Below the pieces are notes generated by a model. That model made no database searches, was not told the origin of the DNA, and saw only the letters and a program-made list of their open reading frames with translations. The position numbers and the translations under genes are program-made. From contig JAKARG010000001.1 in NCBI GenBank assembly GCA_021819345.1, forward strand, positions 1 through 32,421: DNA of 32,421 nucleotides. Reading direction: 5' to 3'. This DNA comes from Actinomycetes bacterium (GTDB taxonomy: Bacteria; Actinomycetota; Acidimicrobiia; Acidimicrobiales; Palsa-688). This document shows, piece after piece, positions 1,141 to 26,989 of this stretch (the first letter of the stretch is position 1; each line of letters begins with the position of its first letter).

Positions 1141-1167
1141 CTCTTCTCCAGAAAGTTGGTTGACCGG

Positions 1168-2070: not shown

Positions 2071-3011
2071 TGAACTCGGACGCGAGGGTCGATGACTGCG
2101 TAGAGAATGTCGGCGAGAAGCGATCCGACCACTGTCGCTACTGCGACGACGAGCGTGACCCCTAGGATGACCGGGTAATCCTCGTCTTGTGCCGCGTTCC
2201 AGAGCAGCAGACCCATTCCCGGATAGTTGAAGACGGACTCCACCACGACCGCACCCCCGACGACGACGGGCAGCGTGAGGCCAACCAGCGTCACGACAGG
2301 CCCCACAGCATTTCGTAGAACATGGCGCGACGCAAGAAGTAGCTCGCCGAAGCCTTTCGCACGTACGGCGCGTACCCAATCCTGGGTCAGGGCTTCGATG
2401 GTCGAGGAACGAACGTAGCGACTGAAGAGGGCAATGGTGACGAGCGTGAGAGTGATGATCGGCAGGGCGATGTCGGACGGGTGCAGGAGCAGCTGGCCAA
2501 TCGACGCCTGCGGAACGATTGGTTGGAACAGATGTAATTGCACCGCGAACAATACGACGAGGATGAGGCCCAACCAGAAGATCGGCATCGAGTAGAAGAC
2601 GAAGGAGAAGCCCGTTGCCACATAATCAGCGATCCGGTTCCGACGAAAAGCCTGGAGCATGCCGAGTGGTATTGCTATCAGAAGGGCGAAGGCGTTGGCG
2701 AAGCCGACGAGGACCACGTCTCCTGGTAGGCGTTGGCCGATGAGGGTGAGCACCGGCTCGTTGAGCTTGACCGAGTACCCGAGATCGCCCTGGAACAGAT
2801 CGGCGGTCCAGCGCAGGTACTGGACGGGTAGGGGCCGGTTGTACCCGTACTCACGGTTGAACGCAGCGATCTTGGCTGGTGTCGCTCGATCACCGAGCAT
2901 TGCTCGTGCGGGCCCGCCGGGAAGGAGGTGGATCATGACGAACACGATCACCGATACGCCGAACAGGACTGCTAGGGCCTGGCCTGTTCGGCGGAGCAAG
3001 AAGTGTCCCAT
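2067..3011 (-). CDS. ABC transporter permease (DppB/OppB-like)
   Basis: Lies in track ORF 2067..3035. I prefer ATG 3011 (MGHFLLRRTGQALAVLFGVSVIVFVMIHLLPGGPA, a typical DppB-type N-terminus), 5 nt after the SBP stop at 3017..3019. The alternative start is 3035. Confidence 0.9.
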   Translation of the reverse strand: MGHFLLRRTGQALAVLFGVSVIVFVMIHLLPGGPARAMLGDRATPAKIAAFNREYGYNRPLPVQYLRWTADLFQGDLGYSVKLNEPVLTLIGQRLPGDVVLVGFANAFALLIAIPLGMLQAFRRNRIADYVATGFSFVFYSMPIFWLGLILVVLFAVQLHLFQPIVPQASIGQLLLHPSDIALPIITLTLVTIALFSRYVRSSTIEALTQDWVRAVRAKGFGELLLASRHVLRNAVGPVVTLVGLTLPVVVGGAVVVESVFNYPGMGLLLWNAAQDEDYPVILGVTLVVAVATVVGSLLADILYAVIDPRVRVQ

Positions 3012-3016
3012 CGCGC

Positions 3017-4828
3017 CTACTTGCCCACCGACCACAGCTCCGGCGTGATGCCAAGACCATCAACGGGCTGAGGGGTTGCACCATGGAGGCGCTTGCTGAT
3101 CGCGGAGATCTGGACGGGCGATACGGGCATGAAGAGCATCGGCAGCTGCTGGGCCGTGTAGTTCTGCCAGGTGTCCAGGGGCCCGAGACCCGGTTGGGTC
3201 GTCGTGGCTCTGATGAGGGTGTCCATCCGGGAGTTGCTGTAGCTGCCGAAGTTCCCCACCGCCCCTGTGGCGAACGCGACCTCTCCCGAAGGGTAGTTGT
3301 CGGGAGAGAACTCCCATCCGTTACCCCAGTAGGCCATTCCCCAGGTGCAGGAGGCCTGCCCTGCACTGCAGGGGACTGCGGCCGCTTCCACCTGTGCGAA
3401 GGGTTCTTGGGTGAGGGTGAGGTCTATCCCGGCCAACGAGAAAGAAGACTTGAGCGCCTGGGCTTCCTCTCCGACGGTTGCGAGTCCTGAGGCATAGAGG
3501 AGACCGAGCCGAAGGGGCGCGCCAGCTCTGATCCCTGTGCCGCAGCTCGTCGGTCCGTTGCCAGGGCGGTCGCAGACGGCGACGCCAGCTCGGTTGCGCC
3601 TCCAGCCATGGCTTCGGAGCAGCGCCTCGGCGGCGCGGAGCGAGTAACGCAGCGGGCCCGCCTTCACGTAGGAGTCCACGTACTGGGTCGATGGCCCGTT
3701 GGGGACGGGACCGTTGTCGGTGATGCCGTAACCGTCGAGAAGAGCGGACTCGAGCTGGCGTTCGTCGATGAGTCGCTGCATCGCCTGGCGAATATATAGC
3801 TGGCGGTAGAGCGGACCTTGAGTGGGATTGTGGAAGTTCATCGGGATGATGTTCATGGACCACAGGTACCACGGGACCACGTCGAACCCTTCGCCTTCGA
3901 GGAGGCTGCGCTGGCCGAGGTCCCCGATAGGTATGTAACCGTAGGTCAAGGACCCCGAACGTAGGGCGTTGTACTCGGCGGAGTCCGATGTGAAAGGAAC
4001 CTCGATGAACTTCGAGAGCTCGGGCTCGTGGCCGAAATAGGTCTTATTCGGAACGAAGACTGCGTAGCCATCGGGGCTGAAGCTGGATAGTCTCCAGGGG
4101 CCGTCGACGACTTTCCAGAGTGGATTCGTTGCGTAGGTCCGGAGGTCGGTCGACTGAGCGTTCAGGAACTTGTAGACGGCATGGGCCCCCGAGGCGGTGT
4201 AGTCGAAGTTCCCGACGGGTCCCGAGGCGCTCGTCTTGTCCCAGGCCTGTTGGGGGATCGGCACGATCTGGCTGAGCTCGTTCAAGGTGAACCAGGTGGG
4301 ATTGACGCTTGCGGTCAGATGGAGCACGACCGTCGTAGTCGAGGTGGTGGTGACCGAGGCGACGTCGTCGGGAAAGTAGCCCGGGGCGTACTCTCCCCAA
4401 TCCTGCTTGTTGGCCCGCAAGAGGTTGATCCAGAACGTAACGTCCCTCGCCGTCACCGCGTGTCCGTCGGACCACCGTACATGCTTGAGCCGGATGGTGA
4501 CCACACGGTCGGCGCCGGTGTAGATTGGCGGGTACGCCAAAGAAAGCGTGTCGTTCAGCTCGACGTCGCTCCCCCGGCCGAAGAAGTAGAGCGGGCGCCA
4601 CATGAGGTTTTGGAACTCGTTGATGTTGGTCGTGTCGAAGTACTGGAGTGCGTCGAGGGGAAAGATGTAGTTCGGAGGCGAGCCGGGTGACTCGGCGAAG
4701 GTGGCCGTGCCTCCGTGCCTGGTTGCGGTCGTGACCGCACTAGGCGGTGCTGGGGTCGAGCCGCAAGCGCCGAGGATCCCGGAGAGAGCAGATAGTGAGA
4801 GGATGGTAGCAATGCGGCGGTGTCTCAT
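3017..4828 (-). CDS. ABC transporter substrate-binding lipoprotein, family 5 (peptide/nickel type)
   Basis: Lies in track ORF 3017..5032. ATG 4828 gives MRHRRIATILSLSALSGILGACGS, a signal peptide with a lipobox-like LGAC. It is preceded by GGAG (ttggagcagcATG). The 68 codons upstream look non-coding. Confidence 0.9.
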   Translation of the reverse strand: MRHRRIATILSLSALSGILGACGSTPAPPSAVTTATRHGGTATFAESPGSPPNYIFPLDALQYFDTTNINEFQNLMWRPLYFFGRGSDVELNDTLSLAYPPIYTGADRVVTIRLKHVRWSDGHAVTARDVTFWINLLRANKQDWGEYAPGYFPDDVASVTTTSTTTVVLHLTASVNPTWFTLNELSQIVPIPQQAWDKTSASGPVGNFDYTASGAHAVYKFLNAQSTDLRTYATNPLWKVVDGPWRLSSFSPDGYAVFVPNKTYFGHEPELSKFIEVPFTSDSAEYNALRSGSLTYGYIPIGDLGQRSLLEGEGFDVVPWYLWSMNIIPMNFHNPTQGPLYRQLYIRQAMQRLIDERQLESALLDGYGITDNGPVPNGPSTQYVDSYVKAGPLRYSLRAAEALLRSHGWRRNRAGVAVCDRPGNGPTSCGTGIRAGAPLRLGLLYASGLATVGEEAQALKSSFSLAGIDLTLTQEPFAQVEAAAVPCSAGQASCTWGMAYWGNGWEFSPDNYPSGEVAFATGAVGNFGSYSNSRMDTLIRATTTQPGLGPLDTWQNYTAQQLPMLFMPVSPVQISAISKRLHGATPQPVDGLGITPELWSVGK

Positions 4829-7844: not shown

Positions 7845-8218
7845 TGATGGGAGTAGAGCAGATCCGTCCGATCCGCATGGGCGAGGGCCAGGTGGTCGAG
7901 CCGAAATGGCCGGAGGGCGATGCGAGCGAAGGCTGGGCCGAGAAGGAGTACCGTAGCTTCGCCGATGAGACGGGAAGGCTGTTCGGCGGCACCTGGCAAG
8001 GGAGCCCGGGGAGCTTGAGAATGGATCCTTACCCCTACGACGAGGTCTGCGTGATGCTCTCTGGCCGGGTCGCGCTCGTGGACGTCGACGGCGGGCGCCG
8101 GGAGTTCGGCGAAGGTGAGGCGTTCTTCGTCCCCAGAGGCTTTCGGGGGGTATGGGAGACGCTCGTGCCGTCGCAGAAGATCTTCATCGGCATGAGCGTG
8201 ACCGACCCTTCGATATGA
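7844..8218 (+). CDS. Small cupin protein (Cupin_3/DUF861-like)
   Basis: ATG 7844 shares its A with the ATPase stop (TGATG), and GAAGAAGGGAA lies upstream. The sequence YDEVCVMLSGRVALVDVDGGRREFGEGEAFFVPRGFRGVWE matches my recollection of the DUF861 cupin pattern. Confidence 0.7.
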   Translation: MMGVEQIRPIRMGEGQVVEPKWPEGDASEGWAEKEYRSFADETGRLFGGTWQGSPGSLRMDPYPYDEVCVMLSGRVALVDVDGGRREFGEGEAFFVPRGFRGVWETLVPSQKIFIGMSVTDPSI

Positions 8219-9807
8219 CCTCGGCCCCCTTTGCCTGGTCGCCGCGGGGCTGGCCGTCGGAGCGTGCCTTCGCCACGGGCGGTCCCGAGGTCTGGTGCTA
8301 CGCAGACCGCTTCTCCTACCTACCCGGAGAGTCGGTCGGGCTCCACCTGGCCTCGACGGCGCGAGAGTTCGAGGTGGAGATCACACGCGACGGTGCTCGG
8401 CCGGAGCGGGTCTGGTTCAAGAGATCGGTAACGGCTGAGGCCTTCGCGACCCCTGACGACGCCTACGCGGTCGGGTGTGGTTGGCCCGTCGGCCTGACCG
8501 TCGACATACCCGAGAGCTGGCCGTCGGGGTTCTACGTCGTCACCGTCCGGGCCGAGGGCACCGAACCGTGGGAGCGCGAGCACTTCTTCGTAGTCAGGGC
8601 ACCCGTCGAACGTCGCGCAGAGATGGCACTGGTGCTCACGACCAGCACGATGCTCGCCTACAACGACTGGGGTGGGGCGAACCACTACCGGGGCCTCGGA
8701 GACGACCCACGGGTCGAGGGCGCCTCTCCGCGAGTGTCGCTCATGCGTCCAGTGGCCAGGGGAATGATCCGCAAGCCTCCTGGGGCGCCGAGGGAGGCCA
8801 ACCCACTGTCCCTTCCGATGCACGCTCCTCCCCGCTATCCGGCGTACGAGTGGGCACGACTGTTCGGCTACAGCCGGCATCACGCTGATGCGTTCTGGGC
8901 CACCTACGAGCGTCCGTTCGCCATCTGGGCGGAAGGGGAACGATACCGCTTCGACATGCTCACCCAGCAGGACCTGCATGACGATCCGCACGCGCTCGAC
9001 GGATACAGCTGTGCGGTCGTCGTGGGTCATGACGAGTATTGGTCCTGGGAGATGCGCGATGTGGTGGACGCCTTCGTGGACGGCGGGGGGAACCTTTGCC
9101 GCCTCGGCGGTAACTTCTACTGGCAAGTCCGCTTCGAAGAGGGCGGGACCGTACAGTGTTGCTACCGCGCCCCGGCGCTGGATCCGCTGGCGGTCACTCA
9201 GCCGCGGCGTGCGACCACGGCGTGGGAGGCATTGTCGCTCGGGCGCCCCGGAGCGTCCACCATGGGACTGAACGGCATGGGGGGCACGTATGCTCGTTAC
9301 GGCTGCGCCGCGCCTCGAGCCTCAGGCGGCTTCACCGTCTACCGGGAACGGCACTGGGCGTTCGAGGGCACCGACCTTTATTACGGGGACGTCCTCGGTG
9401 GCCTGCCGACGCTCTTGGCCGGCTTCGAGATGGACGGAGTGGACTATACCTTCAGGAGAGGCTTACCGCTTCCCACCTTCGAAGACGGGGCGCCCGAGAG
9501 CCTGGAGATCCTTGCGATGACACCGGCTGTGCGGGGCGAGGAGGACCGCTTCGGTGGTAGCGTCCCTCTAGGCGGACCACTGGACGAAGGCGAGGAATAT
9601 CAACAGGCAATGGCAGCGGATATCCCCACCTGGGCCTCAGCGATGGCCTATCGTGGAGCAGGTATGATCGGGGTGTTCGAGCGAGGCGCAGGCACGGTCT
9701 TCAACGGAGGGTCGACCGAGTGGCCCCACGCTCTCGAAGTCGGGGACCCGTTCTGTACAGGAGTGGTTCGAAACGTGCTCGACCGATTCGGTGCGGAGAG
9801 AGCATGA
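8215..9807 (+). CDS. N,N-dimethylformamidase beta-subunit-like / DUF6605-type protein (function unknown)
   Basis: ATG 8215 overlaps the cupin stop as ATGA. The family call rests on remembered motifs ([34 protein letters not shown]). No search was run. Confidence 0.55.
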
Positions 9808-15416: not shown

Positions 15417-16477
15417 GTGGCCCAAGTGGTCGTCGCCACGGCGGACGGGGTGGTGAGCGTCGAGGCGACGGGCGGGGTGGCGGCCGGCCTGGCTGGGCGC
15501 CGGGTGCGGGCGCTCGCTCCGGCGTCGTGGCGCACTCTCTGGGCCGCCCTCGACGGCGGGGAGATCTGGAGGTGCCGGGACGGGACCTGGGAGCGAGTGG
15601 TTGCGCTCGCCTCGGATGGCGGCGCCGAGGCCCTCGAAGTCCGCTGCCTCGCCGGCACCCGGGCCAACGACGAGGGCGGGATCCTCGCCGGCACCACGGC
15701 GGTGGGATCCTGCGCTCGGCCGATGAGGGACGGAGGTTCGTGGCCAGGATCGACATCGACGCAGGCGTGCACCGGGTGGTGACCGCCAAGGCCGGCAGGG
15801 TGCTTGCCGCCGCCGCCGGCGGGCTGTGGTCGAGCGACGACCAGGACGAGACCTGGCGGCTCGCCACGGCGGGCCTCGAGGAGACCTACTGCCGCTCGGT
15901 CGCGGTCTGCGGGTCGACGATCCCGCTCTCCGCGTCGGCCGGCCCCCGGGGCGAGCGCGCCGGGCTCTATCGCTCCGGGGACGGAGGTGGCTCCTTCGAA
16001 CGCTGCCGCAGTGGGCTCCCCGATCACCTCCCGGGCAACATCGACAGCCTGTGCCTCGACGCGCTCCCAGACGGGAGCCTGGCCGCCTTCGCCACCTCCT
16101 CGGGTGAGCTCTACGTCTCCGCCGACGAGGGCGGGACCTGGGAGCGGGCGGCCACCGGGCTGGCGGACCCGCGCGGGGTGCTCGTCTGGCCCCGGGCTCC
16201 GGCTGGCCCCGGGGTCCGGCTGGCCATGTGCTCCGGCCCGGCTCCGGCCCGGCCGGCGCTCCAGTCAGCCGGTCCGGTCCGGTTGGCTAACCCGCCGTCG
16301 GCGAGGGCAGCGGGGTGTGGTCGCGGCCGGCGGGAGAGGAGGTCGGCCGACCGAGGAGGAAGCCCTGCCCGAGCGGAACGCCGAGCTCCAGCAGGCTCTC
16401 GTGCTCGGCCCGGGTCTCGATCCCCTCGGCGACCAGGTTGCACCCGGTCCGCTCGGCCACGTCGACCAAGGCTCTGA
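15417..16477 (+). pseudogene. BNR/Asp-box beta-propeller protein, apparently frameshifted near 15695..15706; 3' end uncertain
   Basis: The frame from GTG 15417 reads VAQVVVATADGVVSVE...LWAALDGGEIWRCRDGTWERV...EGGILAGTT and then junk. The next frame continues GGILRSADEGRRF...GGLWSSDDQDETWRLATAGL...LYRSGDGGGSFERC...LYVSADEGGTWERAATGL, which are Asp-box SxDxGxTW repeats. The span is 1061 nt, one short of a multiple of 3. Confidence 0.55.
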
Positions 16478-19337
16478 CGAGAGCCTGGCGGGCCGGGTCA
16501 CCAGGCAGCCCGCGCACCCATCCGGCGTCGAGCTTGCCGATCTCGGGTCCGTGCTCTTCGAGCAGGTGCAGGGTGTCGTAGGCGGGCACGATCCCCGACA
16601 GCGCGAGGGTGGTCCCGACCGGGAGGGTGCCGACCAGCTCGACCAGCTCCTCCTCGGAGGCGATCCTGCGGTGGTCGAGCTCGAGGACGACCGGCCGAGA
16701 GGCCCCGCTGAGGGCGTGGGAGAGGGCCAAGCCGGCTCTGAGCAGCCCGGGTGACACGTTGATCGAGATCCAGGAGCTCCCGGGGAGCGAGGCTGCGGCT
16801 GCCACCCCGGCCCGGGCGAGCAGCAGCTCGAGCTCGATCCCGGCCCCGACCGAGGCGGCCTGGGCCAAGCGGTCGGCGGGGCCGATGCCGTCGTCGAAGC
16901 GGGTCAGGACCTCGTAGCCGACCACGGCTCCGCTCCGTAGGTCGACGACCGGTTGGAACACGGTGCGAAAGCCGCTCTGCCTCGATCTGCCGGGACGGTC
17001 GGGATCCGGGTCGCGGACCGAAGTGGCGGCCGCAGGAGCCGCGGGGGCGGCCCCGAAGAGCCCCGGCGCCGGGCTCCCCCCGAAGTGCAGCACCGAGGCC
17101 CAGTCGACCGCCGGAGGGCTCGCGATCACCGACGCAGCCGTCGTCGGCCCTGCCAGCGGCGCCTGCGCCGGGCGGTAGAGCCAGGAGCGGAGGTGCGCCC
17201 AGAGGTCCCGCACCGTGTTCCCGAGGCCGATGAAGGCGACCAGGGCGTAGGCGAGGAGCACCGTGTTGAGCCCGGCGTAGACGCCGTTGACCACCCGGTC
17301 GCCCACCACGTCGCGCCACAGCGTGAAGCCGGCGAGGCCGAGGATGAGCCAGGGCATGACGACGAACACGAGGCTCGGGACGGTGCGGTCCCGCACCTTC
17401 GGGGTGCGCCCGAAGACGCTCTTGTCACCGGTGAGCCACTGCACCACGGAGTCGAAGACACCGGCCAGGTTGATCGGCAGCAGGATCAGGTTGAAGCCGT
17501 AGATCCGCGCGACGTCGGTCCATTTGTACCCGCAGCTGCGCAGGTCGCTCGCCATCGCGGCGAAATAGGGAAGAGCGATGAGGCCGAGCAACGGGGTGAC
17601 GAGCTCGTTGCGGAACGGATAGCCGAGGAGCAGCACGAGCGACAGCGACGCCCAGGTGATCGATGCCAGGTAGTTGGTCCGCAGCAGCGTCTCGCTCACC
17701 GGGACGCTCAGGCCGAGCTTCTTGCGCTCCTTGCGGTAGCGGCGCAGCTTGCCGAGGATCAGGAGGCCCCCGTTGGCCCAGCGGCGCCGCTGGATGCAGA
17801 GCGCGCCGAAGTCCGGCGGGGTGGCCGAGTACGCCAGGCGCTCGGGGAAGTTGACCAGCTTCCAGCCGTGGCGGGCGAGGTCGAGGGTGGACTCGGTGTC
17901 CTCGATCACCGTCCGGTCCTGGATGTAGCGGCGGATCTCCCAGTTGCCCTCGTAGTGGGACTCGCAGATCTCGTCGAGGGCGCGCTTGCGCAGCACTGCG
18001 TTGGCTCCCACCCAGAAGGTGGCGTCGTAGTGGCAGAGCCCCTGGTGCTGTTGGTACTGGAGGTCGGTGGTCGCGCCGGCGAGTCGCTCGATCCTCGTCT
18101 CGGCACCGGGGTAGGAGCTGTAGGGGGTCTGGGCCACGGCAGCCCGGGAGTGCTCGGACTGCTCCAGGAGGTGCACCATCCTCAGGCAGTACTCCGGCAT
18201 GAGGATGCTGTCGGCGTCGAGGGTGGCCACGAAGTCGGGGTCGGGCACCACCAAGTCGGCGGTGCCGCTCGTGGTCGGCACGAGCACCCTGCCCTGGAGG
18301 GTCTCCAGGTCCTGGTAGGCCCCGCCCATGAGGCCGATGTAGCTGTTCAGGTTCATCGCCTTGTTGGCGTCGTGGCTCGAAGAGGCGTAGCGCTTGCGCT
18401 CGAAGCTCGACAGCTCCGCCCGGAAGGTCCACACCAGGCGGCGGTGGAGCTGGCGCAGGCGCTCGGGGCCGAGGATCGCGCCGTCTTCGGCGGCTGCACG
18501 CAGGGCGGTGGCGGTGAGCGTGAAGTCCGCAGCGAGGCCACCGAGCACCTCGTTCACGAAGAATCGGTCTGCGTGGTCGAGGATCTCCTCGGCGGCGGAC
18601 TGCTCCTCCAGCCACTGGACGGCCCACTCGTAGTCGGTGGCGAGGCCGAGCAGGTCCTCTCGGTGGCGCTCCTCCTGCCTCGGGCGCCCCTCGAAGGCAT
18701 CGAGAGCGGCAGCGAAGCGACCGGCGGGCTCCGCCAGGAGCTCTTGGACCTGGCCGGGCAGCGCCCTGGCGGCGGCGAGCGCTGCCTGGTCGGCCTCGGC
18801 CAGCGGGTCGGGCGGGTCGTCGATCAGTAGCACGATGCGCAGGTGCGGGTACTCCTGGAGCGCTGCGGAGAGCAGCGTCGTGCGGATCACCCGCCGATCC
18901 TCCTTGTAGGAGGGCACGAGCACGGTGAGGGTCGGGTCGGTGTGGGAGAAGAACTCGTCGAGCGCTGCCCGAGGAACCCGTCGGTGGCTCTTGGTCCGGT
19001 AGAGGTAACCCAACCTGCAGGCGAGGTAGGCCAGCGCGGAGAGGGTGAGGAACGTCACCACGAGCAGGTAGACGGCGGCTTCGACCTCGGAGCGGGTGCT
19101 CGTGCCCCCAGGAGCGTCGAGCTCGCCGACCAGCCAGGAGACGAAGTAGGCGCACCAGGCTCCGACGGTGACCACGATGGCGAGGCGGCCGACGGCTATC
19201 CGACCCTCGGTGACGGTGGTCGCAGCGATCGGCCCGCTTCGCCGGTCGGCGCCGAGCTGGCGTCTCCTCGCGGGCTCGGTCGTCTCGGTCGAACTGGGTC
19301 GGGGCGGGATGGGAGTGCTCCTAGGCCGGGACGGCAC
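16287..19337 (-). CDS. Membrane-embedded processive family-2 glycosyltransferase (BcsA/cellulose-synthase-like) fused to a C-terminal degenerate EAL domain
   Basis: Lies in track ORF 16287..19622. I prefer GTG 19337 because the upstream part collides with the divergent gene. GT2 motifs are VLVPSYKED, LLIDDP, HDANKAMNLN (compare BcsA HAKAGNLN), TLDADS, QTPYS, FWVGANAVLRKRAL, EDTESTLDL and QRRRWANG. Hydrophobic spans flank the catalytic core. The C-terminal EAL-type domain begins at FQPVVDL...GYEVLTRF. Confidence 0.9.
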   Translation of the reverse strand: MPSRPRSTPIPPRPSSTETTEPARRRQLGADRRSGPIAATTVTEGRIAVGRLAIVVTVGAWCAYFVSWLVGELDAPGGTSTRSEVEAAVYLLVVTFLTLSALAYLACRLGYLYRTKSHRRVPRAALDEFFSHTDPTLTVLVPSYKEDRRVIRTTLLSAALQEYPHLRIVLLIDDPPDPLAEADQAALAAARALPGQVQELLAEPAGRFAAALDAFEGRPRQEERHREDLLGLATDYEWAVQWLEEQSAAEEILDHADRFFVNEVLGGLAADFTLTATALRAAAEDGAILGPERLRQLHRRLVWTFRAELSSFERKRYASSSHDANKAMNLNSYIGLMGGAYQDLETLQGRVLVPTTSGTADLVVPDPDFVATLDADSILMPEYCLRMVHLLEQSEHSRAAVAQTPYSSYPGAETRIERLAGATTDLQYQQHQGLCHYDATFWVGANAVLRKRALDEICESHYEGNWEIRRYIQDRTVIEDTESTLDLARHGWKLVNFPERLAYSATPPDFGALCIQRRRWANGGLLILGKLRRYRKERKKLGLSVPVSETLLRTNYLASITWASLSLVLLLGYPFRNELVTPLLGLIALPYFAAMASDLRSCGYKWTDVARIYGFNLILLPINLAGVFDSVVQWLTGDKSVFGRTPKVRDRTVPSLVFVVMPWLILGLAGFTLWRDVVGDRVVNGVYAGLNTVLLAYALVAFIGLGNTVRDLWAHLRSWLYRPAQAPLAGPTTAASVIASPPAVDWASVLHFGGSPAPGLFGAAPAAPAAATSVRDPDPDRPGRSRQSGFRTVFQPVVDLRSGAVVGYEVLTRFDDGIGPADRLAQAASVGAGIELELLLARAGVAAAASLPGSSWISINVSPGLLRAGLALSHALSGASRPVVLELDHRRIASEEELVELVGTLPVGTTLALSGIVPAYDTLHLLEEHGPEIGKLDAGWVRGLPGDPARQALVRALVDVAERTGCNLVAEGIETRAEHESLLELGVPLGQGFLLGRPTSSPAGRDHTPLPSPTAG
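16344..16970 (-). other. EAL domain lacking the metal-binding DD pair
   Basis: Retained residues are EVL(T)R (16905..16913), INVS, LEL, GKLD, AEGIET and GQGFLLGRP. The canonical DDFG(T/A)GYSS loop reads LALSGIVPAYDTL, with Ser-Gly codons at 16593..16598. Confidence 0.8.
17763..18932 (-). other. GT2 catalytic core, from VLVPSYKED to QRRRW
   Basis: Coordinates were computed from residue positions 231..620 of the track ORF. Confidence 0.8.
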
Positions 19338-19468
19338 CGGGTCGGCCGCCGCCAGTGGTTGTATCGGATGCCTGCACCCTGAGCCGACCGCGCTCGGTGC
19401 GACGCAGAAATCGCGGAAGAAGCTGCACTCCTGCCGGTCGGCCCGCTGCCCCCACTTACCCTCGTGGC

Positions 19469-21031
19469 GTGAGCAGATCCCCCGACCTGGTCCCTTCCGT
19501 CGCGCCCGCTGCCGGGGATCTCCGGTTGTCCCGTAGCCGGCTCGGCGCCGTGGTGCTCGTTGCCCTGGCGCTCGTCGGTGCGTCGGTGTGGACGGTGCGC
19601 AGCGCCGTGGGCCCCAAGCCACCCGAGCCGGCCGTCACCTGGTACGCCCCCTACGTCGACGCCACGCTGACGCCGACTTACCAGTTCCAGCTCCCCGCCG
19701 ACGATCCGGCTCGCCAGATAGTGCTCGGCTTCGTCGTCGCCTCGCGCTCCGAGGGGTGCGTCCCCTCCTGGGGCGACTACTACAGCCTCGGGCAGGCGGC
19801 GAGCGCGCTCGCCCTCGACGCCCGGGTGGCCCAGGTGCGCGAGGACGGGGGAACGCCGATCGTCTCCTTCGGCGGCCAGGCCAACACCGGCCTCGCCGAC
19901 GCCTGCACCGACCAGGCGGCCCTGCGAGCTGCCTACAGCCAGGTGATCAGCCGCTACGACCTGTCGGTCGTGAACTTCGACGTGGAAGGGGCTGCCCTCG
20001 CCGATGCGGCCGGCAACCTGCGCCGGGCCCGGGCGCTCGCCTCACTGCAGGCTGCGGCCCGGGCAGATCACCGGAGCCTCGCCGTCTGGCTGACCGTCCC
20101 GGTTGCCCGGAGCGGCCTGACGCCTGCGGTGGCCGGCCTGGTGCGGACCACACTTCGGGCCGGGGTCGAGCTCGCCGGGGTCGACGTCATGGCCATGGAC
20201 TTCGGACCGCCGGTAGCCGACATGGAGACGGCGGTGCAGCAGGCGCTCGGGGCCAGCGCCGGCCAGCTCGGCGCGATCTACCGCCAGGTCGGCATCCGCC
20301 TCGACTCGACCGAGGTGTGGGCGCATCTCGGGGTGACGGTGATGATCGGCCAGAACAACAGCGCGGGGGAGACCTTCACCACCCTCGACGCGCACCGCCT
20401 GGTGAGCTTCGCCACCGAGGTCCACCTGGCGCGGGTGTCGGCCTGGTCGATCAACCGCGACCGTCAGTGCGGCGGCGAGTTCCCCGTGCTCGCCGTCGAG
20501 TCCAACACCTGCAGCGGAGTTGCCCAGTCGACCCTCGAGTTCAGCCACATCTTCTCCGCGCTGCGGGGCAGCGCGCTCCGCACCAGCGGCCGCACCCCTG
20601 CGCCCTACGTGCCGAGCACCACCGACAACCCGGCCACGAGCCCGTTCCCGATCTGGAACCCCACGGCGGCCTACGTGAGCGGCTACAAGGTCGTCCGGGA
20701 GGGCTATGTGTACCAGGCCAAGTGGTACAACCAGGGCTCGGACCCCGCGGCCGCGCAGGCCGAGGACCCCTCGCAGTCGCCCTGGGAGCTGATCGGACCC
20801 GTCCTGCCCGGCGAGCACGCCCCGAAGCTGCCCACCCTGGCAGCCGGGACCTACCCGGCTTGGTCCCCGGTGGTGGCCTACCAGGCCGGTGCGGAGGTGC
20901 TGCGAGACGGCCTCCCCTACGTGGCCAAGTGGTACTCGAAGGGCGACGATCCGCTCGCCGCGGCCGACGGCTCTGCCTCCTCGCCGTGGTCTCCGGCCTA
21001 CACCCTTCCCGGGGAGCCGGCACCCGGCTGA
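19469..21031 (+). CDS. Membrane-anchored or secreted GH18-family glycoside hydrolase (chitinase-like) with two C-terminal CBM5/12 modules
   Basis: Lies in track ORF 19355..21031. The GTG 19469 start is tentative. The N-terminal hydrophobic anchor is LGAVVLVALALVGASVW. GH18 (hevamine-type) features are YAPYVDATL, SFGGQ, NFDVEG (19973..19990), MAMDFG, VMIGQNN and WSINRD. Two CBM5/12-like repeats occur at about 20641..20745 and 20851..20955 (YKVVREGYVYQAKWYNQGSDP and AEVLRDGLPYVAKWYSKGDDP). Confidence 0.85.
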   Translation: MSRSPDLVPSVAPAAGDLRLSRSRLGAVVLVALALVGASVWTVRSAVGPKPPEPAVTWYAPYVDATLTPTYQFQLPADDPARQIVLGFVVASRSEGCVPSWGDYYSLGQAASALALDARVAQVREDGGTPIVSFGGQANTGLADACTDQAALRAAYSQVISRYDLSVVNFDVEGAALADAAGNLRRARALASLQAAARADHRSLAVWLTVPVARSGLTPAVAGLVRTTLRAGVELAGVDVMAMDFGPPVADMETAVQQALGASAGQLGAIYRQVGIRLDSTEVWAHLGVTVMIGQNNSAGETFTTLDAHRLVSFATEVHLARVSAWSINRDRQCGGEFPVLAVESNTCSGVAQSTLEFSHIFSALRGSALRTSGRTPAPYVPSTTDNPATSPFPIWNPTAAYVSGYKVVREGYVYQAKWYNQGSDPAAAQAEDPSQSPWELIGPVLPGEHAPKLPTLAAGTYPAWSPVVAYQAGAEVLRDGLPYVAKWYSKGDDPLAAADGSASSPWSPAYTLPGEPAPG

Positions 21032-21100
21032 GCCGGCGGGCAGCCGGCCGAGCCGAGCCCAGCTAGCCCGGCCCAGGTCGGCCGAGGTGAGATCACTGGA

Positions 21101-22966
21101 TCAGCTCACCTTGGCGGTCACCACGTCGGAGCGCACGCCGCCGGCGACCACGTAGAAGCGGTTGGTCCGTAACAGCTCGACGCGGATCAGGGCAGTGCCG
21201 TTGCCGGCGGGCGTGGCAGCGGTCGTGGCCGCAGCCCTCGGGAAGAAGCTCGTCGCCGCGAACGGCTCGTCGTAGAGCACGACCTTCTGGCCGGGGCGGT
21301 CGGTTGTCACGCGGATGGCGACCATTCCCGGGTCGCTCAGCGGGGCGGGGCTGGAGACGAACACCTCGACCGGCGGGTCGGTGATCTCCACCGGTGCCGA
21401 CGGCTCCGAGGGAGCTCCCTCGCCGGCGGAGCCGACGGCCGTCGCGGTGAACTCGAAGCTCCCAGCGGGGAGCCCGGACATCGTGACTGTGGTCGTACGG
21501 GAGAAGACGGTCCGTCCCCGACCGCCGAGGAGATGGGCGGTGACGAAGTAGCCCTCGATCGCGCCCTGACCCAACACCGGGCTCGAGGGCGGGTCCCAGG
21601 AGACGGTCGCTTCTCCGGGGCCGGTGGGCGACGCCACGGGCTGACCGGGGGGCCCGAGCGCGGCAGCTGCGGTGGTGGCCGACGAGGTCGCAGCCGGGAG
21701 GGTGACCGTCGCCGGCGAGGAGGGCGGCGAGCTCCAGCCGCCGGCGTTGGTCGCAATGACTTCGAAGCGGTACGTGCTTCCCGGCGAGAGGCCGGTGAGC
21801 GTCGCCGAGGGCGAGGACGTGGAGCCGACCACGACCGGCGACCCGCCCGCTCGGAGCCGTTCGAGGATGTAGGTCTCGACGGGCAGGCCGCCGTCGCCGC
21901 CCGGGGGCTGCCAGTACAGCTCGACGCCCGCTCCGGTCGCTGTGGCCGCCCCTGTCGCGACGGCTACCAGGCCGGTTGGTGGTTCGGGGGGGAGCACGAA
22001 GGTGTCGGTGAAGTCCTGCCCCCCGCCGGGCGAGGCGCCGGGGGCGCCGGCGGCCGCGAGGACATGCCCGGCCGAGCCGACCATGTCGACCTCGTCGGCT
22101 GCGGTCATGTCGGTGGCGAACCACCCCGTCTGGCCGGCGAAGTCGCCGTAGATCCCGGTTCGGCCGAAGCCGACCGACCCGAAGTCGGCCGGCGAGCTCT
22201 GAGTGCCGTCGATCATGGGCGCCTCCTCGATCCACTCGGCGGAGGTCCCCGGCCCCGAGTAGGCGAAGTCCTGCTGGAAGGACCATCCGGCCGTCCGGTC
22301 GGCGAGGTAGATGCTCCAGGTCCCCGGCCCGACCTCCGAGACCCTGGCCGCCATCTGGTCGCCCGGGGACACCGGGGCGGGCGATCCGTCGGGCGCAGCG
22401 ATGGTCACCGCCGGGGCGGGGAGGATCTCCCACCAGGCCGAGTAGCCACTGCCGGGATCCTGGGAGGTGCCCGTCTGGATCAGGTCGGAGTTGGTCACCC
22501 CGTCTACGCCCACCCAGCTGCCCGAAGCGGTCCCGGCTGCGCCGCTCACCGCGGGCACCGTCCAGGCCCCCTCCGCCCCCTCGATGCCGGTTCCCGAGGT
22601 CACGAGCCCCGACCAGTTGTCGCTCTCGGTGGCCTCGGTCGGGCGCCCCGAGACCATCCGATGCGCAAGCGGCCGGCCGAAGAGGCCCTGGCGGGCGTTC
22701 CCCGGGCCGATCCTGGCCCCCGCGACGCCACCGGGGGGGACGGGACGAGGAGCGTGCCCGCCGAGGACCGGAGGGACCGGAGCGGCTGGCGAAAGCGGCG
22801 TTGCCGCGTGGGCGGCTGGGGCCTCGGGGGCGACCACCACGACGGCGACGAGGACCGTCGCAGCGACGAGGAGCGTCGAGGCGAGCCGCAGCCCGCCGTT
22901 GGCTCGCTCACAGCGCGGAGTCGAGGCCGGCTCGGGACTGGCCGCTAGTGGTCTGGTCCAGCTCAT
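21101..22966 (-). CDS. Secreted glutamic peptidase, family G1 (eqolisin / Peptidase_A4) with two FN3-like domains and a C-terminal beta-sandwich region
   Basis: ATG 22966. The signal/anchor is LRLASTLLVAATVLVAVVVVAP. The G1 core lies at about 22052..22624, with NWSG, SWVGVDG, LIQTG (catalytic Gln), YSAWWEILP and SAEWIEE (catalytic Glu). FN3-like segments include VELYWQPPGGDGGLPVETYILE...YRFEVIATNAGG and a second copy. Confidence 0.85.
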   Translation of the reverse strand: MSWTRPLAASPEPASTPRCERANGGLRLASTLLVAATVLVAVVVVAPEAPAAHAATPLSPAAPVPPVLGGHAPRPVPPGGVAGARIGPGNARQGLFGRPLAHRMVSGRPTEATESDNWSGLVTSGTGIEGAEGAWTVPAVSGAAGTASGSWVGVDGVTNSDLIQTGTSQDPGSGYSAWWEILPAPAVTIAAPDGSPAPVSPGDQMAARVSEVGPGTWSIYLADRTAGWSFQQDFAYSGPGTSAEWIEEAPMIDGTQSSPADFGSVGFGRTGIYGDFAGQTGWFATDMTAADEVDMVGSAGHVLAAAGAPGASPGGGQDFTDTFVLPPEPPTGLVAVATGAATATGAGVELYWQPPGGDGGLPVETYILERLRAGGSPVVVGSTSSPSATLTGLSPGSTYRFEVIATNAGGWSSPPSSPATVTLPAATSSATTAAAALGPPGQPVASPTGPGEATVSWDPPSSPVLGQGAIEGYFVTAHLLGGRGRTVFSRTTTVTMSGLPAGSFEFTATAVGSAGEGAPSEPSAPVEITDPPVEVFVSSPAPLSDPGMVAIRVTTDRPGQKVVLYDEPFAATSFFPRAAATTAATPAGNGTALIRVELLRTNRFYVVAGGVRSDVVTAKVS

Positions 22967-23245: not shown

Positions 23246-26200
23246 ATGGTCCAGGAGTCCGCCCGTGAAGGATGGTCGCTTCTCTCGAAGCGGGCGAGGA
23301 GGGGACCGGGTCGGCTGTCGACCTGCGTCGCAGCGGCTGCTCTGTTCGTCGGCAGCCTCGGGGCAGGTGTCGCCGGCGCCGCGGTCGCCGGGGCTGCACC
23401 CCTCGCGGTCCATCCGAAGCTGGTGAAGGTAGCCGCAGCACCGCGAGCCCCCGAGGGTGCGAGGGAGCTCGGGAGGGTGAGGGGCTCGCAGGTCATCCAC
23501 GGAGCCATCGCCTTGCAGCCTTCGGACCCTGCCGGCCTCGCCGCCTTCGCCGCGGCGGTCTCGAAGCCCGGGTCGGCCTCCTACCACCACTACCTCGCCC
23601 CTGGACAGTTCCGCGCCCGCTTCGGGCCGGCGGCGGAGACCATCGCAGCGGTTCGCGCGTCGCTCCGGTCGGCCGGCGTGTCGGTGACCTCGGTCTCCTC
23701 CAACGGGCTGCTCGTCGACTTCTCCGGGCGCTCCTCGCAGGTGGCGGCGGCGTTCCACACCCGCTTCGAGCGCTTCGGGCTCACCGGCGGCCGGAGTGGC
23801 TACGCCGCAGTCACCCCGATCTCGCTGCCCTCGACGGTGGCGTCCTCGGTCGCATCGGTGGTCGGGCTCTCCGACCTCTACCACCCCGCTCCGGTCAGCC
23901 TGTACCTGCACGGCCCGGCCCGTGGCGGACCGGGGCACCGCCGAGCCAAGGCTGCGCGAGCATCGAGCGTGCCGGTGGCCGGCGGCCCCGCCGCCTGCCC
24001 GGCGGCCACCAAGGCCGCCAACGAGTACGGGGGGCTCACCGACACCCAGATCGCCTACTCCTACGGGATGGACCCGCTGCTGAAGGCGGGCTACGACGGC
24101 ACCGGCCAGACGATCGCGGTCTACGAGCTCGAGCCGTTCGACCCGAGCGACATCATGGCCTTCGACACCTGCTACTTCGGCTCGGCCGCGGCGACCGCAA
24201 TGATGTCACGGCTGAGCGTCGTCCCGGTGGACGGTGGCCAGCAGATCGGCTACGGCTCGGGGGAGGCGGAGCTCGACGTCGAGGACGTCTCGGCGATGGC
24301 TCCTGGGGCCAACATCGACGTCTACGAGGCACCGAACACCACCTTCGGCGCCCTCGACGAGTACAACGCGATCGTGAGCTCCGACACCGCCAAGGTGGTC
24401 ACCACCTCCTGGGGCCTTTGCGAAGCGGCGATCGAGACCGGTGAGCCGGGCATCCAGGAGGTCGAGAACACGATCTTCGAGCAGGCCGCCGCCCAGGGCC
24501 AGTCGATCTTCGCCGCAGCGGGTGACGACGGCTCCAACGACTGCGGCAACCACGCCACCTCCCCCGTCGCCCCGGTCCTCTCGGTCGACGACCCCGGTAG
24601 CCAGCCGTATGTCACCTCGGTCGGTGGGCTCACCATCGACACCGCCACCCAGCCTCCCCAGGAGACCGTGTGGAACGACGGGCCGCAGTGGGGAGCCGGC
24701 GGAGGCGGGATCTCCTCGACCTGGGCCCAGCCGGCCTGGCAGTCGACGAGTGTTCCCGGCGTCGACGACCAGAGCGTGATCGCCGCCGCCGAGAAGCTGG
24801 CGGGCAACGACTTCTGCCTCTCCTCCGGGGCGCTCGCCGCCACCGCCACCGCCTGCCGAGAGGTCCCAGACGTGAGCGCCCAGGCCGACGAGTTCACCGG
24901 GGCGATCACCATCTACTACCAGGGCCAGTGGATCACCATCGGGGGAACCTCCTCGGCCACCCCGCTATGGGCCTCCATGCTCACCGACATCGACTCGACC
25001 CCCTCCTGTCAGGCCAACGGCGGGGTCGGCTTCGCCAACCCGGCGCTCTACTCGATCGCGTCGATCCCGGCCGAGTACGCAGCGTCGTTCACCAACGTGA
25101 CCACCGGTAACAACGACCTGTTTGCCCTCCCGGGCGACCTGTACCCGGCGACGAGCGGCTACAACATGGCGAGTGGGCTCGGCTCCCCGCAGGTCACCGC
25201 CCCCGGCGGGGGCAACGGGCTCGCCTACTACCTCTGCGCGGCGCCGGCGATCGCCAGGCCTACGGTCACGGGGCTCAGCCCGACGGTGGTGACCAGCTCG
25301 GCCACCACGGCGGTGACCGTCACCGGCACCGGCTTCGAGTCCGCCTCGGGAGCCCCCCAGGTCGCCGGGGTCCAGGTGGGCTCCCTCGGGCTGCCGGCCT
25401 CGGCGGTGAGCGTCTCGTCGCCCACGACCCTGGTCGTCCAGGTGCCCGGTGCTGCGCTCCAGCACGCCGGCGACCCCTCGGCGCCGACAACGAGCACCGG
25501 GGCGGGGATCTACGACGTCTCGGTGACCCTCGACGGAGGCGAGACGAGCGCCCCTGGCGCCAGCTCTCGCCTGGTCCTCGACCCGTCGAGCACGACCGTT
25601 ACGACCAGCACCGCCAGCGCCTCGGCCGGACCGGTGGTGGTCGGCACCGGTCCCGCAGGTGGCAACGAGGCGGGAGGTGGGACCGTCACCGTCTACGGCG
25701 TTGGCTTCAGCGGAGCGACGCAGGTGACCTTCGGCGGGGTGGCAGGCAGCGCCCCGGTGGTCAACTCGTCGGGCACCGAGCTCACCACCACCGTGCCGGC
25801 CTACGGGCCGAGCACCACCTGCTTGACGGGTGACAACCCGACCGACGACGTCTGCCAGGTCCAGGTGCAGGTGACCACCCCGGCGGGCACCAGCGCGACG
25901 AGCCAGATCCTCCCCGAGTACGCCGGCGCCTATGCCTTCAACGCCCAGGGCGTCTTCGTGCCGCCGGCCGGCACCGAGGTCTCGCCTGCGCCGACCGAGT
26001 ACGACTACTTCCCGACCCCGACGCTCACCTCGGCCACCAGCACCTCGCTCAGCGCGAGCGGTGCGGACTTCGTCAACTCCAACGGCGGGACGGTCGAGAC
26101 GCTCACCGGGACCGGGCTCGGGGCGCTGGCCGTCGAGTGGTACGACGTCGGGGCGCCGAACCAGTACACGAGCTTCTCGGCGAGCCCGGTCTACATCAGC

Positions 26201-26989
26201 CCGACCAAGGACGAGATCGTGATGCCGGCCATCGGCTCGGTGAAGACGATCACCCCCGAGCCGGTCTCGGTCCAGACCCTCGGCAGCATCAACTCCTCCA
26301 ACCTGTCGTCGAGCACCCCACCGAGCAGCGAGGTCACCGTCGACTACGCCCCGACGCCGAAGATCAGCTCGGTGAGCGCGGTCGGCAACGCCTACGACGC
26401 CGGCCCGGCTGCCGGCGGTACGCAGCTGGTGATCACCGGCACCGGTTTGGCCTCCGCCGCCTCGGCGGTGTTCTCCGACCTGAGCCCCTCGGAGTTCTCC
26501 TACGCACGGACCACCGCAGTGCAGATCGTGAGCAACGACGAGGTTACCGTCACCACCCCGGCAGCCAACCCGGGCTTCGACGGGGTGCGGATCTGCGACG
26601 CCTCGGGGTGCTCGACCTACACCGCTCCCGGGTCTCCCTTCGCACCGAAGGGGTCCTTCTTCACCTACTTCGCCCCCGGCAATCCCTCCCTCCAGAGCAT
26701 CAAGCCCTGGAGCGGCCCGGCTTCTGGTGGCACCGAGGTGACCCTTACCGGCTACAACCTCGGCTTCGCCGACGAAGTGCTGTTCGGTACCGAAGCGGTG
26801 AGCGCGGAGATCGTGCCGGCGATCCTGGACGAGGGCAGCACCACCACGGTGACGGTCAAGGCTCCGAAGGGCCCGGCGGGCACGAGCGTGCCAGTGCGGA
26901 TAGTGACCCTTGCCTCGCTGGTGGACGGGTCGGGGCCGAGCCCGGTGAGCCACTACATCGACTTCACCTGGCACCGGAGCGCCAGCTGA
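23246..26989 (+). CDS. Secreted sedolisin/kumamolisin-like serine-carboxyl peptidase (S53) with pro-kumamolisin activation domain and about five C-terminal IPT/TIG-like repeats
   Basis: Lies in track ORF 22976..26989. ATG 23246 is preceded by AGGGAGG. The signal peptide is LSTCVAAAALFVGSLGAGVAGAAVAGAAP. The prodomain has ASYHHYLAPGQFRARFGP. Catalytic motifs are GEAELDVED, SWG, AAGDDGS and GGTSSATPLWASM (Ser codon 24950..24952). Repeated about 90-aa segments have the form P.(V/I)T.(L/V)SP...G.T.VT(I/L)TG.GF. Confidence 0.9.
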   Translation: MVQESAREGWSLLSKRARRGPGRLSTCVAAAALFVGSLGAGVAGAAVAGAAPLAVHPKLVKVAAAPRAPEGARELGRVRGSQVIHGAIALQPSDPAGLAAFAAAVSKPGSASYHHYLAPGQFRARFGPAAETIAAVRASLRSAGVSVTSVSSNGLLVDFSGRSSQVAAAFHTRFERFGLTGGRSGYAAVTPISLPSTVASSVASVVGLSDLYHPAPVSLYLHGPARGGPGHRRAKAARASSVPVAGGPAACPAATKAANEYGGLTDTQIAYSYGMDPLLKAGYDGTGQTIAVYELEPFDPSDIMAFDTCYFGSAAATAMMSRLSVVPVDGGQQIGYGSGEAELDVEDVSAMAPGANIDVYEAPNTTFGALDEYNAIVSSDTAKVVTTSWGLCEAAIETGEPGIQEVENTIFEQAAAQGQSIFAAAGDDGSNDCGNHATSPVAPVLSVDDPGSQPYVTSVGGLTIDTATQPPQETVWNDGPQWGAGGGGISSTWAQPAWQSTSVPGVDDQSVIAAAEKLAGNDFCLSSGALAATATACREVPDVSAQADEFTGAITIYYQGQWITIGGTSSATPLWASMLTDIDSTPSCQANGGVGFANPALYSIASIPAEYAASFTNVTTGNNDLFALPGDLYPATSGYNMASGLGSPQVTAPGGGNGLAYYLCAAPAIARPTVTGLSPTVVTSSATTAVTVTGTGFESASGAPQVAGVQVGSLGLPASAVSVSSPTTLVVQVPGAALQHAGDPSAPTTSTGAGIYDVSVTLDGGETSAPGASSRLVLDPSSTTVTTSTASASAGPVVVGTGPAGGNEAGGGTVTVYGVGFSGATQVTFGGVAGSAPVVNSSGTELTTTVPAYGPSTTCLTGDNPTDDVCQVQVQVTTPAGTSATSQILPEYAGAYAFNAQGVFVPPAGTEVSPAPTEYDYFPTPTLTSATSTSLSASGADFVNSNGGTVETLTGTGLGALAVEWYDVGAPNQYTSFSASPVYISPTKDEIVMPAIGSVKTITPEPVSVQTLGSINSSNLSSSTPPSSEVTVDYAPTPKISSVSAVGNAYDAGPAAGGTQLVITGTGLASAASAVFSDLSPSEFSYARTTAVQIVSNDEVTVTTPAANPGFDGVRICDASGCSTYTAPGSPFAPKGSFFTYFAPGNPSLQSIKPWSGPASGGTEVTLTGYNLGFADEVLFGTEAVSAEIVPAILDEGSTTTVTVKAPKGPAGTSVPVRIVTLASLVDGSGPSPVSHYIDFTWHRSAS

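Follow-up and report, generated by a model that had tools for sequence, protein, structure and literature searches.

The cellulose synthase BcsA of Rhodobacter sphaeroides (4P00/5EJ1) is a membrane-integrated processive glycosyltransferase of family 2 (GT2), with the D, DxD, TED-type and QxxRW motifs, transmembrane (TM) helices flanking the GT domain and a cytoplasmic domain related to cyclic di-GMP (c-di-GMP) after the last TM helix. These features are shared by a protein encoded in a stretch of 32,421 nucleotides from an actinomycete of the order Acidimicrobiales (assembly GCA_021819345.1, contig JAKARG010000001.1, positions 1 to 32,421), which is called the window below. In this case the C-terminal domain is an EAL domain. 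The window protein is only 18-20% identical to BcsA, has neither a PilZ domain nor a BcsB partner, and carries an insert of 125 aa in its GT domain. Its partner hydrolase is a GH18/CBM5-12 protein rather than the GH8 enzyme BcsZ, and its product is probably not a glucan. We give an even chance to the reading, based on which residues are kept and which are lost, that the EAL domain would act as a non-hydrolyzing, c-di-GMP-binding switch on the synthase of a chitin-like polymer.

Each part of this arrangement has described relatives. NfrB of Escherichia coli is likewise a GT2 exopolysaccharide synthase with a C-terminal domain other than PilZ; c-di-GMP is bound by its MshEN domain, which activates the GT, and the substrate of NfrB is an N-acetyl-hexosamine (PMC8669469). 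Unlike the window protein, NfrB has MshEN rather than EAL as its receptor, works in a Gram-negative secretion system (with NfrA) and has been characterized experimentally, whereas the window family is known from sequence. Receptors for c-di-GMP include degenerate EAL domains; in LapD, the Arg that follows the EAL signature is central in the binding site (PMC3032553). LapD and FimX, which sense c-di-GMP, resemble the window protein in having an EAL fold in which catalysis is lost (very probably so in our case) and the Arg after the signature is kept. However, they have lost most of the metal ligands, pair the EAL domain with a degenerate GGDEF domain, and have protease sequestration or pilus assembly as their outputs; the losses of the window EAL stop at the Asp pair, loop 6 and a single Glu, it has no GGDEF beside it, and its output would be the synthase to which it is covalently attached.

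In the trigger phosphodiesterases PdeR/YciR, the EAL domain binds and hydrolyzes c-di-GMP, and its occupancy controls a partner (PMC5052742, PMC3715855). This scheme may fit near-canonical members of the family described here, whereas the window protein, without the catalytic Asp pair, would at most be a frozen, non-hydrolyzing version of it. The actinobacteria themselves have synthase-dependent glycan systems, namely Streptomyces MatB and CslA/GlxA/CslZ. MatB (GT2, TM and CE4) makes beta-1,6-linked poly-N-acetylglucosamine (PNAG; PMC5972031). It is nearest to PgaC, whereas the window protein scores better against cellulose synthase models and has a GH18/CBM5-12 partner that points to beta-1,4-linked N-acetylglucosamine (GlcNAc). 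The layout of MatB recurs in relatives of the GT core that are fused to CE4.

Full-text searches, with most subscription journals outside their coverage, returned no paper on a GT2-EAL synthase or on a GT2 plus GH18/CBM5-12 module. The initial annotation of this DNA did not recognize the architecture as characterized. Degenerate EAL receptors and synthases fused to receptors for c-di-GMP are both known, and so is the logic; the combination and the module are undescribed in the literature searched.

The synthase and its EAL domain

The minus-strand open reading frame (ORF), counted from the first GTG, spans 16287..19622 with its stop end at 16287. The database version of the protein starts at the GTG at 19337 and has 1016 aa; P0001, from a metagenome contig and the metagenome-assembled genome GCA_027390875.1, is 100% identical over 1016 aa. 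Residue numbers are those of P0001, and equivalents in the EAL domain are given as RocR residues. Pfam matches Glyco_trans_2_3 (E=5.6e-32) and EAL (E=3.5e-30; 105.5 bits against a cut-off of 31.3). Both ORF and Pfam confirm what the initial annotation had described, a 1016-aa ORF joining a BcsA-like GT2 to a C-terminal EAL domain; the interval singled out there, 16344..16970, corresponds to residues 790-998 and is EAL domain. The motifs quoted at that time (HDANKAMNLN, TLDADS, EDTES and QRRRW) are all in the ORF and fall on invariant columns of the family alignment, where we also find DD173/174, D374-A-D376, E479-D480-T481 (TED-type) and Q516RRRW.

According to an AlphaFold2 model and a hydropathy scan, the protein consists of two TM helices, the GT domain, four TM helices with an interface-type helix, a linker and the EAL domain. 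The EAL domain thus follows the last TM helix and lies in the cytoplasm, in the position that PilZ has in BcsA (Foldseek agrees), as had been expected. The absence of PilZ, also claimed earlier, holds: Pfam gives no PilZ match in the synthase even at E<=1, and a regular-expression search for RxxxR...[DN]xSxxG came back empty, which rules out a PilZ domain elsewhere in the protein. The closest relatives of the protein are actinobacterial, and the source annotations of homologues read 'glycosyltransferase family 2 protein', 'EAL domain-containing protein' or 'cellulose synthase (UDP-forming)'. G+C is ~72% around the gene; it is ~62% in positions 1..4000 of the window and 70-74% across most of the window.

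The GT core has several features of its own. Between the DD motif and HDANKAMNLN lies a helical insert of ~125 aa, modeled as four helices (H181-217, H222-249, H255-284 and H291-305; pLDDT mostly above 90) and kept across the whole GT family, EAL-less members included. We take this to be the same place as that of the P-CR insert of plant CesA; with the GT-only model as query, TM-scores peak for plant CesA proteins (0.47-0.49, query-normalized). The C-terminal membrane region is arranged as BcsA TM5-8/IF3, and its invariant FGRTPK motif is presumably comparable to the FxVTxK gating loop of BcsA. In the linker, the DWASVLH motif is kept in EAL-less and GH18-fused relatives, whose matches reach about residue 753, which assigns it to the synthase core and not to the EAL module.

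For the EAL domain, the alignment of the loop that normally carries two metal-binding Asp residues is crucial. When phmmer is used to align the protein with four solved EAL domains (BlrP1, TBD1265, PA0575 and DcpA), LALSGIVPAYDTL falls on LA(I/L)DDFG(A/T)GYS(G/S)L. In a MAFFT alignment of 120 homologues, Asp occupies the first DD column in 72 and the second in 73. The Ser-Gly reported at 16593..16598 in place of Asp-Asp is therefore upheld by both kinds of alignment. An Asp pair in a shifted register was considered and is ruled out by the four PDB alignments and the 120-sequence alignment, which contains no alternative acidic pair in register.

The losses are limited to D295 (now Ser914), D296 (Gly915) and E268 (His889, the second Glu of ExxE, which reads ELDH here), together with the rest of loop 6, which is S-G-I-V-P-A-Y-D-T in the window protein against the consensus D-D-F-G-(T/A)-G-Y-S-S. 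Residues kept are Q795 (Q161), E809 (E175), R813 (R179), N860 (N233), E886 (E265), K935 (K316), D937 (D318), E971 (E352), E974 and Q991. An intact EAL site has been defined by seven RocR positions (E175, N233, E265, E268, D295, K316 and E352), with Q161, R179, D296 and D318 as the residues that recognize c-di-GMP (PMC2952852). Five of the seven are present in the window EAL, D295 and E268 being the ones missing; D296, outside the seven, is also lost, so that three of the four recognition residues remain (Q795, R813 and D937). In the AlphaFold2 model, residues 789-1010 (pLDDT above 90) form a confident EAL fold that superposes on many solved EAL domains, with target-normalized TM-scores (TMt) of ~0.64-0.75 in Foldseek; c-di-GMP-bound LapD is among them, at ~0.7.

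Judged by established EAL enzymology, the window EAL is very probably unable to hydrolyze c-di-GMP, because it lacks the Asp-Asp ligands, the entire motif of loop 6 and the second ExxE Glu. A residual phosphodiesterase with an altered metal site, lowering c-di-GMP around the synthase, has a very slim chance of being the right description: E809, N860, E886, K935, E971 and E974 are in place for it, but Ser-Gly stands in place of the Asp pair, loop 6 has been remodeled and His replaces the second Glu, and D295, one of the seven positions in PMC2952852, has no acidic substitute in register. The initial annotation also noted that FimX, a degenerate EAL protein, has the EVL signature, but we would not take EVL as a mark of degeneracy. 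EVL is found in 1 of the 120 family members and active phosphodiesterases vary at the middle residue of the signature, so it says nothing about degeneracy; the parallel with FimX is superficial, since the window EAL is far less degenerate than FimX or LapD.

The GT2+EAL architecture is present in all but one of the 120 best database matches (50-85% identity, ~1000 aa). When one genome per GTDB species was scanned, at least 585 relatives of the GT core turned up, and the figures for species-level loci given here refer to the best 80 of these. The synthase carries an EAL domain in 50 of the 80. These loci come from Micromonosporaceae (Actinoplanes, Paractinoplanes, Winogradskya, Planosporangium), Geodermatophilaceae (Blastococcus, Modestobacter), Frankiaceae and many Acidimicrobiia; the taxonomic spread of GT2+EAL fusions, which the initial annotation had suggested looking into, is thus that of a large actinobacterial family.

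The state of the EAL site varies within this family. Thirteen EAL-site positions, the signature motif included, were profiled. Fully canonical sites (QEALRNEDDKEEQ) occur in 54 of the 120 database proteins, another 7 deviate solely by an E-to-D change at the first Glu of ExxE, and 23 of 46 scorable EAL-bearing species-level loci are canonical. Loop 6 of canonical members reads D-D-A-G-A-G-Y-(D/E)-S, and the second Glu of ExxE is not conserved even among them; their phosphodiesterase activity is plausible from the residues present, but not assured. Catalytic residues have been lost in at least four separate clades, each with different lesions. The clade that includes the window protein has [S/T/A]-G for DD, with the general-base Glu changed to Gln in some members; a Geodermatophilaceae clade has E-[D/N/H] and Ser for the general-base Glu; another has Asn to Lys, E-[H/R/N] and Glu to Thr/Ala; and the fourth has D-N with Thr. 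In the 29 sequences of the window clade, the losses are concentrated in loop 6, where DDAGAGY has become [ST]GxxPxY, and the remaining pocket is kept.

Throughout the 120 homologues, in the degenerate clades as elsewhere, E809 and R813 never vary, and Q795, K935, E974 and Q991-G992 almost never do. Repeated, targeted loss of catalysis with strict retention of the nucleotide-contact residues suggests that the function under selection is the binding of c-di-GMP and not its hydrolysis. The proposal that a dead EAL domain serves as the sensor fits this family-wide conservation and has its strongest support there; as a description of the design of the GT2-EAL family it does not hold, because about half of the members keep a near-canonical site and the dead state is specific to certain lineages.

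The same pattern bears on two other explanations. In the first, which we consider unlikely, an ancestral active phosphodiesterase (a local sink or trigger enzyme) has become a ligand-independent vestige heading for deletion. The near-canonical half of the family fits such a history, as does the faster divergence of the EAL domain compared with the GT core (32-55% vs 51-64% identity to the window protein), and in the GT-core tree EAL-less and GT-GH18 fusion clades adjoin the most degenerate EAL clade. However, the window EAL is full-length and confidently folded, its losses are focused on metal and loop-6 positions, and neutral decay would not spare the nucleotide-contact residues listed above in four independent lineages. 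In the second, which is improbable, the EAL domain acts through protein contacts (partner recruitment, synthase dimerization) without c-di-GMP. Loop 6, remodeled here, is a dimerization/regulatory element of EAL domains, but YdiV-type domains are without most of the nucleotide-binding residues, which stay invariant here. Precedent for such a module comes from the degenerate EAL proteins YdiV and BluF/YcgF (for YdiV, PMC3510510).

A neighbor-joining tree of the GT core (80 sequences) has a large, mostly EAL-bearing ingroup, with EAL-less forms, among them Leifsonia and Saccharimonadales, outside it. Inside the ingroup, two EAL-less groups are nested: GT-GH18 fusions of Streptosporangiaceae/Trebonia, which adjoin the most degenerate EAL clade (a clade whose GH18 gene is downstream or fused), and Solirubrobacterales. 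Tentatively, given a neighbor-joining tree of this size, the topology suggests that an active EAL domain was gained, repeatedly made non-catalytic and occasionally lost. Distant members of the GT core are mostly ~700 aa long with no extra domain, and none of them carries PilZ or GGDEF. Nothing shows that PilZ was ever present, since most of the broader GT family lacks a c-di-GMP domain. The other fusions seen among distant members are with CE4 polysaccharide deacetylase (six representatives: P0146, P0150, P0158, P0167, P0225 and P0229), LytR-CpsA-Psr (two), an acyltransferase (one) and DMFA2_C (one).

Comparing EAL-bearing and EAL-less synthases also yields one credible candidate for a residue that contacts the EAL domain, R149 in the cytoplasmic GT domain. 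It is invariant in 47 of 47 EAL-bearing synthases, present in 5 of 17 from the nested EAL-less clades and in 0 of 12 from the outgroup.

The GH18 partner and the probable polymer

Immediately upstream of the synthase gene, a second gene is called from 19550 (493 aa). Its true start is probably farther upstream, for example at the GTG at 19469, because the RLSxxRL motif that precedes the TM helix in the N-termini of orthologs is encoded upstream of 19550. The protein has two CBM5/12 modules (CBM_5_12, 36.7 bits against a cut-off of 26.2), and a profile built from five orthologs matches PDB entry 9buf, 'Exochitinase 1', with E=1.9e-72 and the Pyrococcus chitinase 2dsk with 2.3e-31. The GH18 motifs SxGG, DxDxE, MxYD-type and W...D are conserved in 77 orthologs. 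Both genes of the window locus contain catalytic-motif lesions, the synthase in its EAL domain and the partner in GH18.

A GH18/CBM5-12 gene adjoins the synthase in all five genomic contexts inspected, with no other conserved neighbor there, and in 77 of the 80 species-level loci; the other three sit on contigs of 2.4-3.4 kb. In some genomes the two are a single polypeptide. GT-GH18-CBM ORFs of ~1270-1345 aa occur at nine loci (L054, L055, L058, L060, L061, L062, L064, L065 and L067) and in P0121, whose C-terminal GH18-CBM part is 50% identical to the neighbor protein in the window. Three Acidimicrobiia genomes encode GT-EAL-TM-GH18-CBM polypeptides of ~1515 aa (L032:2014-6549, L038:2514-7040 and L051:5352-9887). 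'Rosetta-stone' fusions of this kind tie the synthase and GH18-CBM together functionally, and in the GT-EAL-GH18 fusions an additional TM helix separates EAL from GH18, which confirms a cytoplasmic EAL domain and a GH18 domain outside. The GT core with its helical insert, the C-terminal EAL domain and the adjacent GH18-CBM5/12 gene make up an unnamed module, and the window locus fits it.

The partner is also the best guide to the product. The pairing of a synthase with a hydrolase is known from BcsA/BcsZ, PgaC/PgaB and CslA/CslZ. Catalysis by GH18 needs the 2-acetamido group of the substrate, and CBM5/12 and CE4 act on chitin-type glycans. Because the constant partner is a GH18/CBM5-12 chitinase homologue and relatives of the synthase are fused to CE4, the product is probably a GlcNAc-containing, chitin-like glycan, probably beta-1,4-linked, rather than cellulose.

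BcsA is the top PDB match of the synthase part both by sequence (E=1.7e-9) and by fold (4p00_A, 733 aligned columns). Scores against the following equivalog or family models stay below the cut-offs: 70.1 bits vs 699.1 for the CelA equivalog TIGR03030, 37.2 vs 992 for PRK11498, 36.8 vs 422 for TIGR03937 (the PNAG synthase PgaC/IcaA), 18.9 vs 550 for NodC (TIGR04242) and 14.5 vs 27 for Chitin_synth_2. Reading the sugar from the fold was tried and set aside, as the fold leaves the substrate unsettled: BcsA, hyaluronan synthases and plant CesA fit the GT-only model to much the same degree, and chitin synthase fits it weakly.

There is a small chance that the protein is literally a cellulose synthase, making beta-1,4-glucan, in which the PilZ gate has been swapped for a dead EAL domain. 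BcsA is the nearest solved relative on both counts, the TED-type and QRRRW motifs match, and FGRTPK resembles the gating loop. However, the CelA equivalog score is far below its cut-off, and no BcsB, BcsC or BcsZ gene is among those called within 10 kb of the synthase gene, in the window or in the other inspected contexts (five contexts in all). In addition, the universal partner is a GH18 protein with chitin-binding modules, relatives are fused to CE4 deacetylases, and most of the broader GT family is without any c-di-GMP domain. The term 'BcsA-like', as first applied, is thus right for fold and motifs, but the CelA score (70 vs 699), the lack of BcsB nearby and the GH18/CBM5-12 partner keep it from extending further.

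Other features of the window

The features of the locus and its surroundings are collected in Table 1. Two large, probably secreted peptidase genes lie beside the GH18 gene and were not found in the other inspected contexts. A DMFA2_C domain like that of the gene ~6.5 kb from the synthase gene is also fused to a distant relative of the synthase core, P0153; the proximity in the window may be a coincidence, because DMFA2_C is no neighbor in the four other inspected contexts. For the split Asp-box gene, the gene caller kept the first 118 aa, and the second frame, running to 16477, would share ~190 bp with the 3' end of the EAL ORF. Its Pfam support is weak (PSII_BNR, E=0.008), and a pseudogene or an error in the assembly may explain the split.

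Regulatory scans gave little. No c-di-GMP riboswitch or other Rfam family was found in the window. The BldD box (TNACN5GTNA) has three matches in the window, which is chance level, and none is near the locus, the divergent promoter region 19338..19549 included. Consensus scans of 15800..21300 for sigma-70 promoters and intrinsic terminators found nothing.

Table 1. Positions and strands of features in the window, with the basis or a remark for each
Feature	Position	Strand	Basis or remark
DMFA2_C-domain gene (N,N-dimethylformamidase beta-subunit-like)	8215..9807	+	~6.5 kb from synthase gene
Asp-box/BNR-like repeat gene, apparently frameshift-split near 15740	15417..15782 and 15692..16477	+	SSDDQDETW, SGDGGGSF, SADEGGTW
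GT2-EAL synthase gene	16287..19337	-	1016 aa, GTG start 19337; frame open upstream to 19622
EAL domain (aa 789-1005), cytoplasmic, catalytically degenerate	16323..16973	-	Pfam, PDB alignments, Foldseek
Ser914-Gly915 replacing metal-binding Asp-Asp (RocR D295/D296)	16593..16598	-	PDB and family alignments
E809-V-L signature, R813 after it	16905..16913	-	Val unique among 120 homologues
Linker (aa 719-788), low-confidence	16974..17183	-	pLDDT below 50 for 721-740 and 755-788
DWASVLH motif (aa 745-751) in linker	17085..17105	-	W746, L750 invariant in family
C-terminal membrane region (aa 547-718)	17184..17699	-	four TM helices and one amphipathic/interface helix
F642-x-R-T-P-K647 (FGRTPK), invariant, gating-loop-like	17397..17414	-	family alignment
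Cytoplasmic GT2 catalytic domain (aa 118-545)	17703..18986	-	Pfam, invariant columns, Foldseek to BcsA 5ej1/4p00
Four-helix family-specific insert in GT domain (aa 181-305)	18423..18797	-	AlphaFold2 model
R149, cytoplasmic GT domain, candidate EAL contact	18891..18893	-	EAL-bearing vs EAL-less comparison
Two N-terminal TM helices (aa 44-117)	18987..19208	-	hydropathy scan; AlphaFold2 helices H44-74, H81-117
GH18/CBM5-12 partner, divergently transcribed, membrane-anchored	19469..21031	+	CBM_5_12 score, ortholog profile, adjacency
GH18 catalytic motif	19973..19987	+	N-F-D-V-E here; D-x-D-x-E in 77/77 orthologs
Peptidase_A4 + fn3 gene, large, probably secreted	21101..22966	-	adjoins GH18 gene
Pro-kumamolisin activation domain + TIG peptidase gene, large, probably secreted	23246..26989	+	near GH18 gene

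Proposed role and implications

In the mechanism we favor, the synthase would be the membrane-embedded processive GT2 of a conserved actinobacterial two-gene module, and the second gene would supply a GH18 hydrolase that is anchored in the membrane, lies outside the cytoplasm and carries two CBM5/12 modules. The polymer would be built in the cytoplasm from a UDP-sugar and extruded through the synthase's own channel; outside, the GH18/CBM partner may trim or bind it. The EAL domain, which most likely binds c-di-GMP because the residues that hold the nucleotide are kept, would relay its occupancy to the synthase as an allosteric switch. By the precedent of BcsA-PilZ and NfrB-MshEN, the switch would be an activating one. 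In canonical members, a role as trigger enzyme or as local c-di-GMP sink is equally possible.

Several points weigh against this reading. About half of the family has a near-canonical EAL site, and so the ancestral role of the domain may have been enzymatic; EAL-less clades lie beside the most degenerate ones, and the domain could be on its way to loss. D296 and loop-6 residues also touch the substrate or the metals in active EAL domains, and their loss could lower the affinity for c-di-GMP. No EAL-GT contact can be read from the AlphaFold2 model, the linker (aa 721-788) being disordered. As for the product, sequence-model scores and fold are nearest to cellulose synthase, the chitin synthase 8k52 ranking 49th by fold; the relatives that join GT to CE4 share the layout of MatB; and in the window GH18 the first Asp of DxDxE is Asn, with the D-x-E pair kept.

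Beyond the window, a wider reading can be put forward, which we regard as possible but rather doubtful. Many Actinomycetota and some Saccharimonadales-labeled genomes may make an unrecognized chitin-like surface polymer, containing beta-1,4-GlcNAc, with a two-gene machine, which may consist of a BcsA-fold synthase and an anchored GH18/CBM5-12 enzyme and which c-di-GMP would gate in one large branch through the fused EAL domain. This branch would comprise Micromonosporaceae, Geodermatophilaceae, Frankiaceae and Acidimicrobiia, and the EAL gate would be a c-di-GMP receptor of a new, synthase-attached class. Within one architecture, the family would then record the path from an active phosphodiesterase to a non-hydrolyzing receptor, taken at least four times, and on to domain loss.

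If the switch is as proposed, EAL would join PilZ, MshEN, the degenerate-GGDEF I-site, GIL and the BgsA C-terminal domain as a receptor wired to an exopolysaccharide synthase, and it would be the first case of a former phosphodiesterase that acts as a receptor while fused to the enzyme under its control. The series of canonical, variously degenerate and EAL-less synthases lets the change from enzyme domain to sensor be tested directly. If the product is as proposed, and the strictly conserved GH18/CBM5-12 partner and the CE4 and LCP fusions point that way, bacteria known mainly for degrading chitin would make a chitin-like glycan. Actinoplanes has among the highest densities of c-di-GMP turnover genes, according to a review (PMC10333796). 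The proposed system would bear on the actinobacterial cell surface, on the development of genera that form sporangia, such as Actinoplanes, and on the interpretation of environmental 'chitin' signals.

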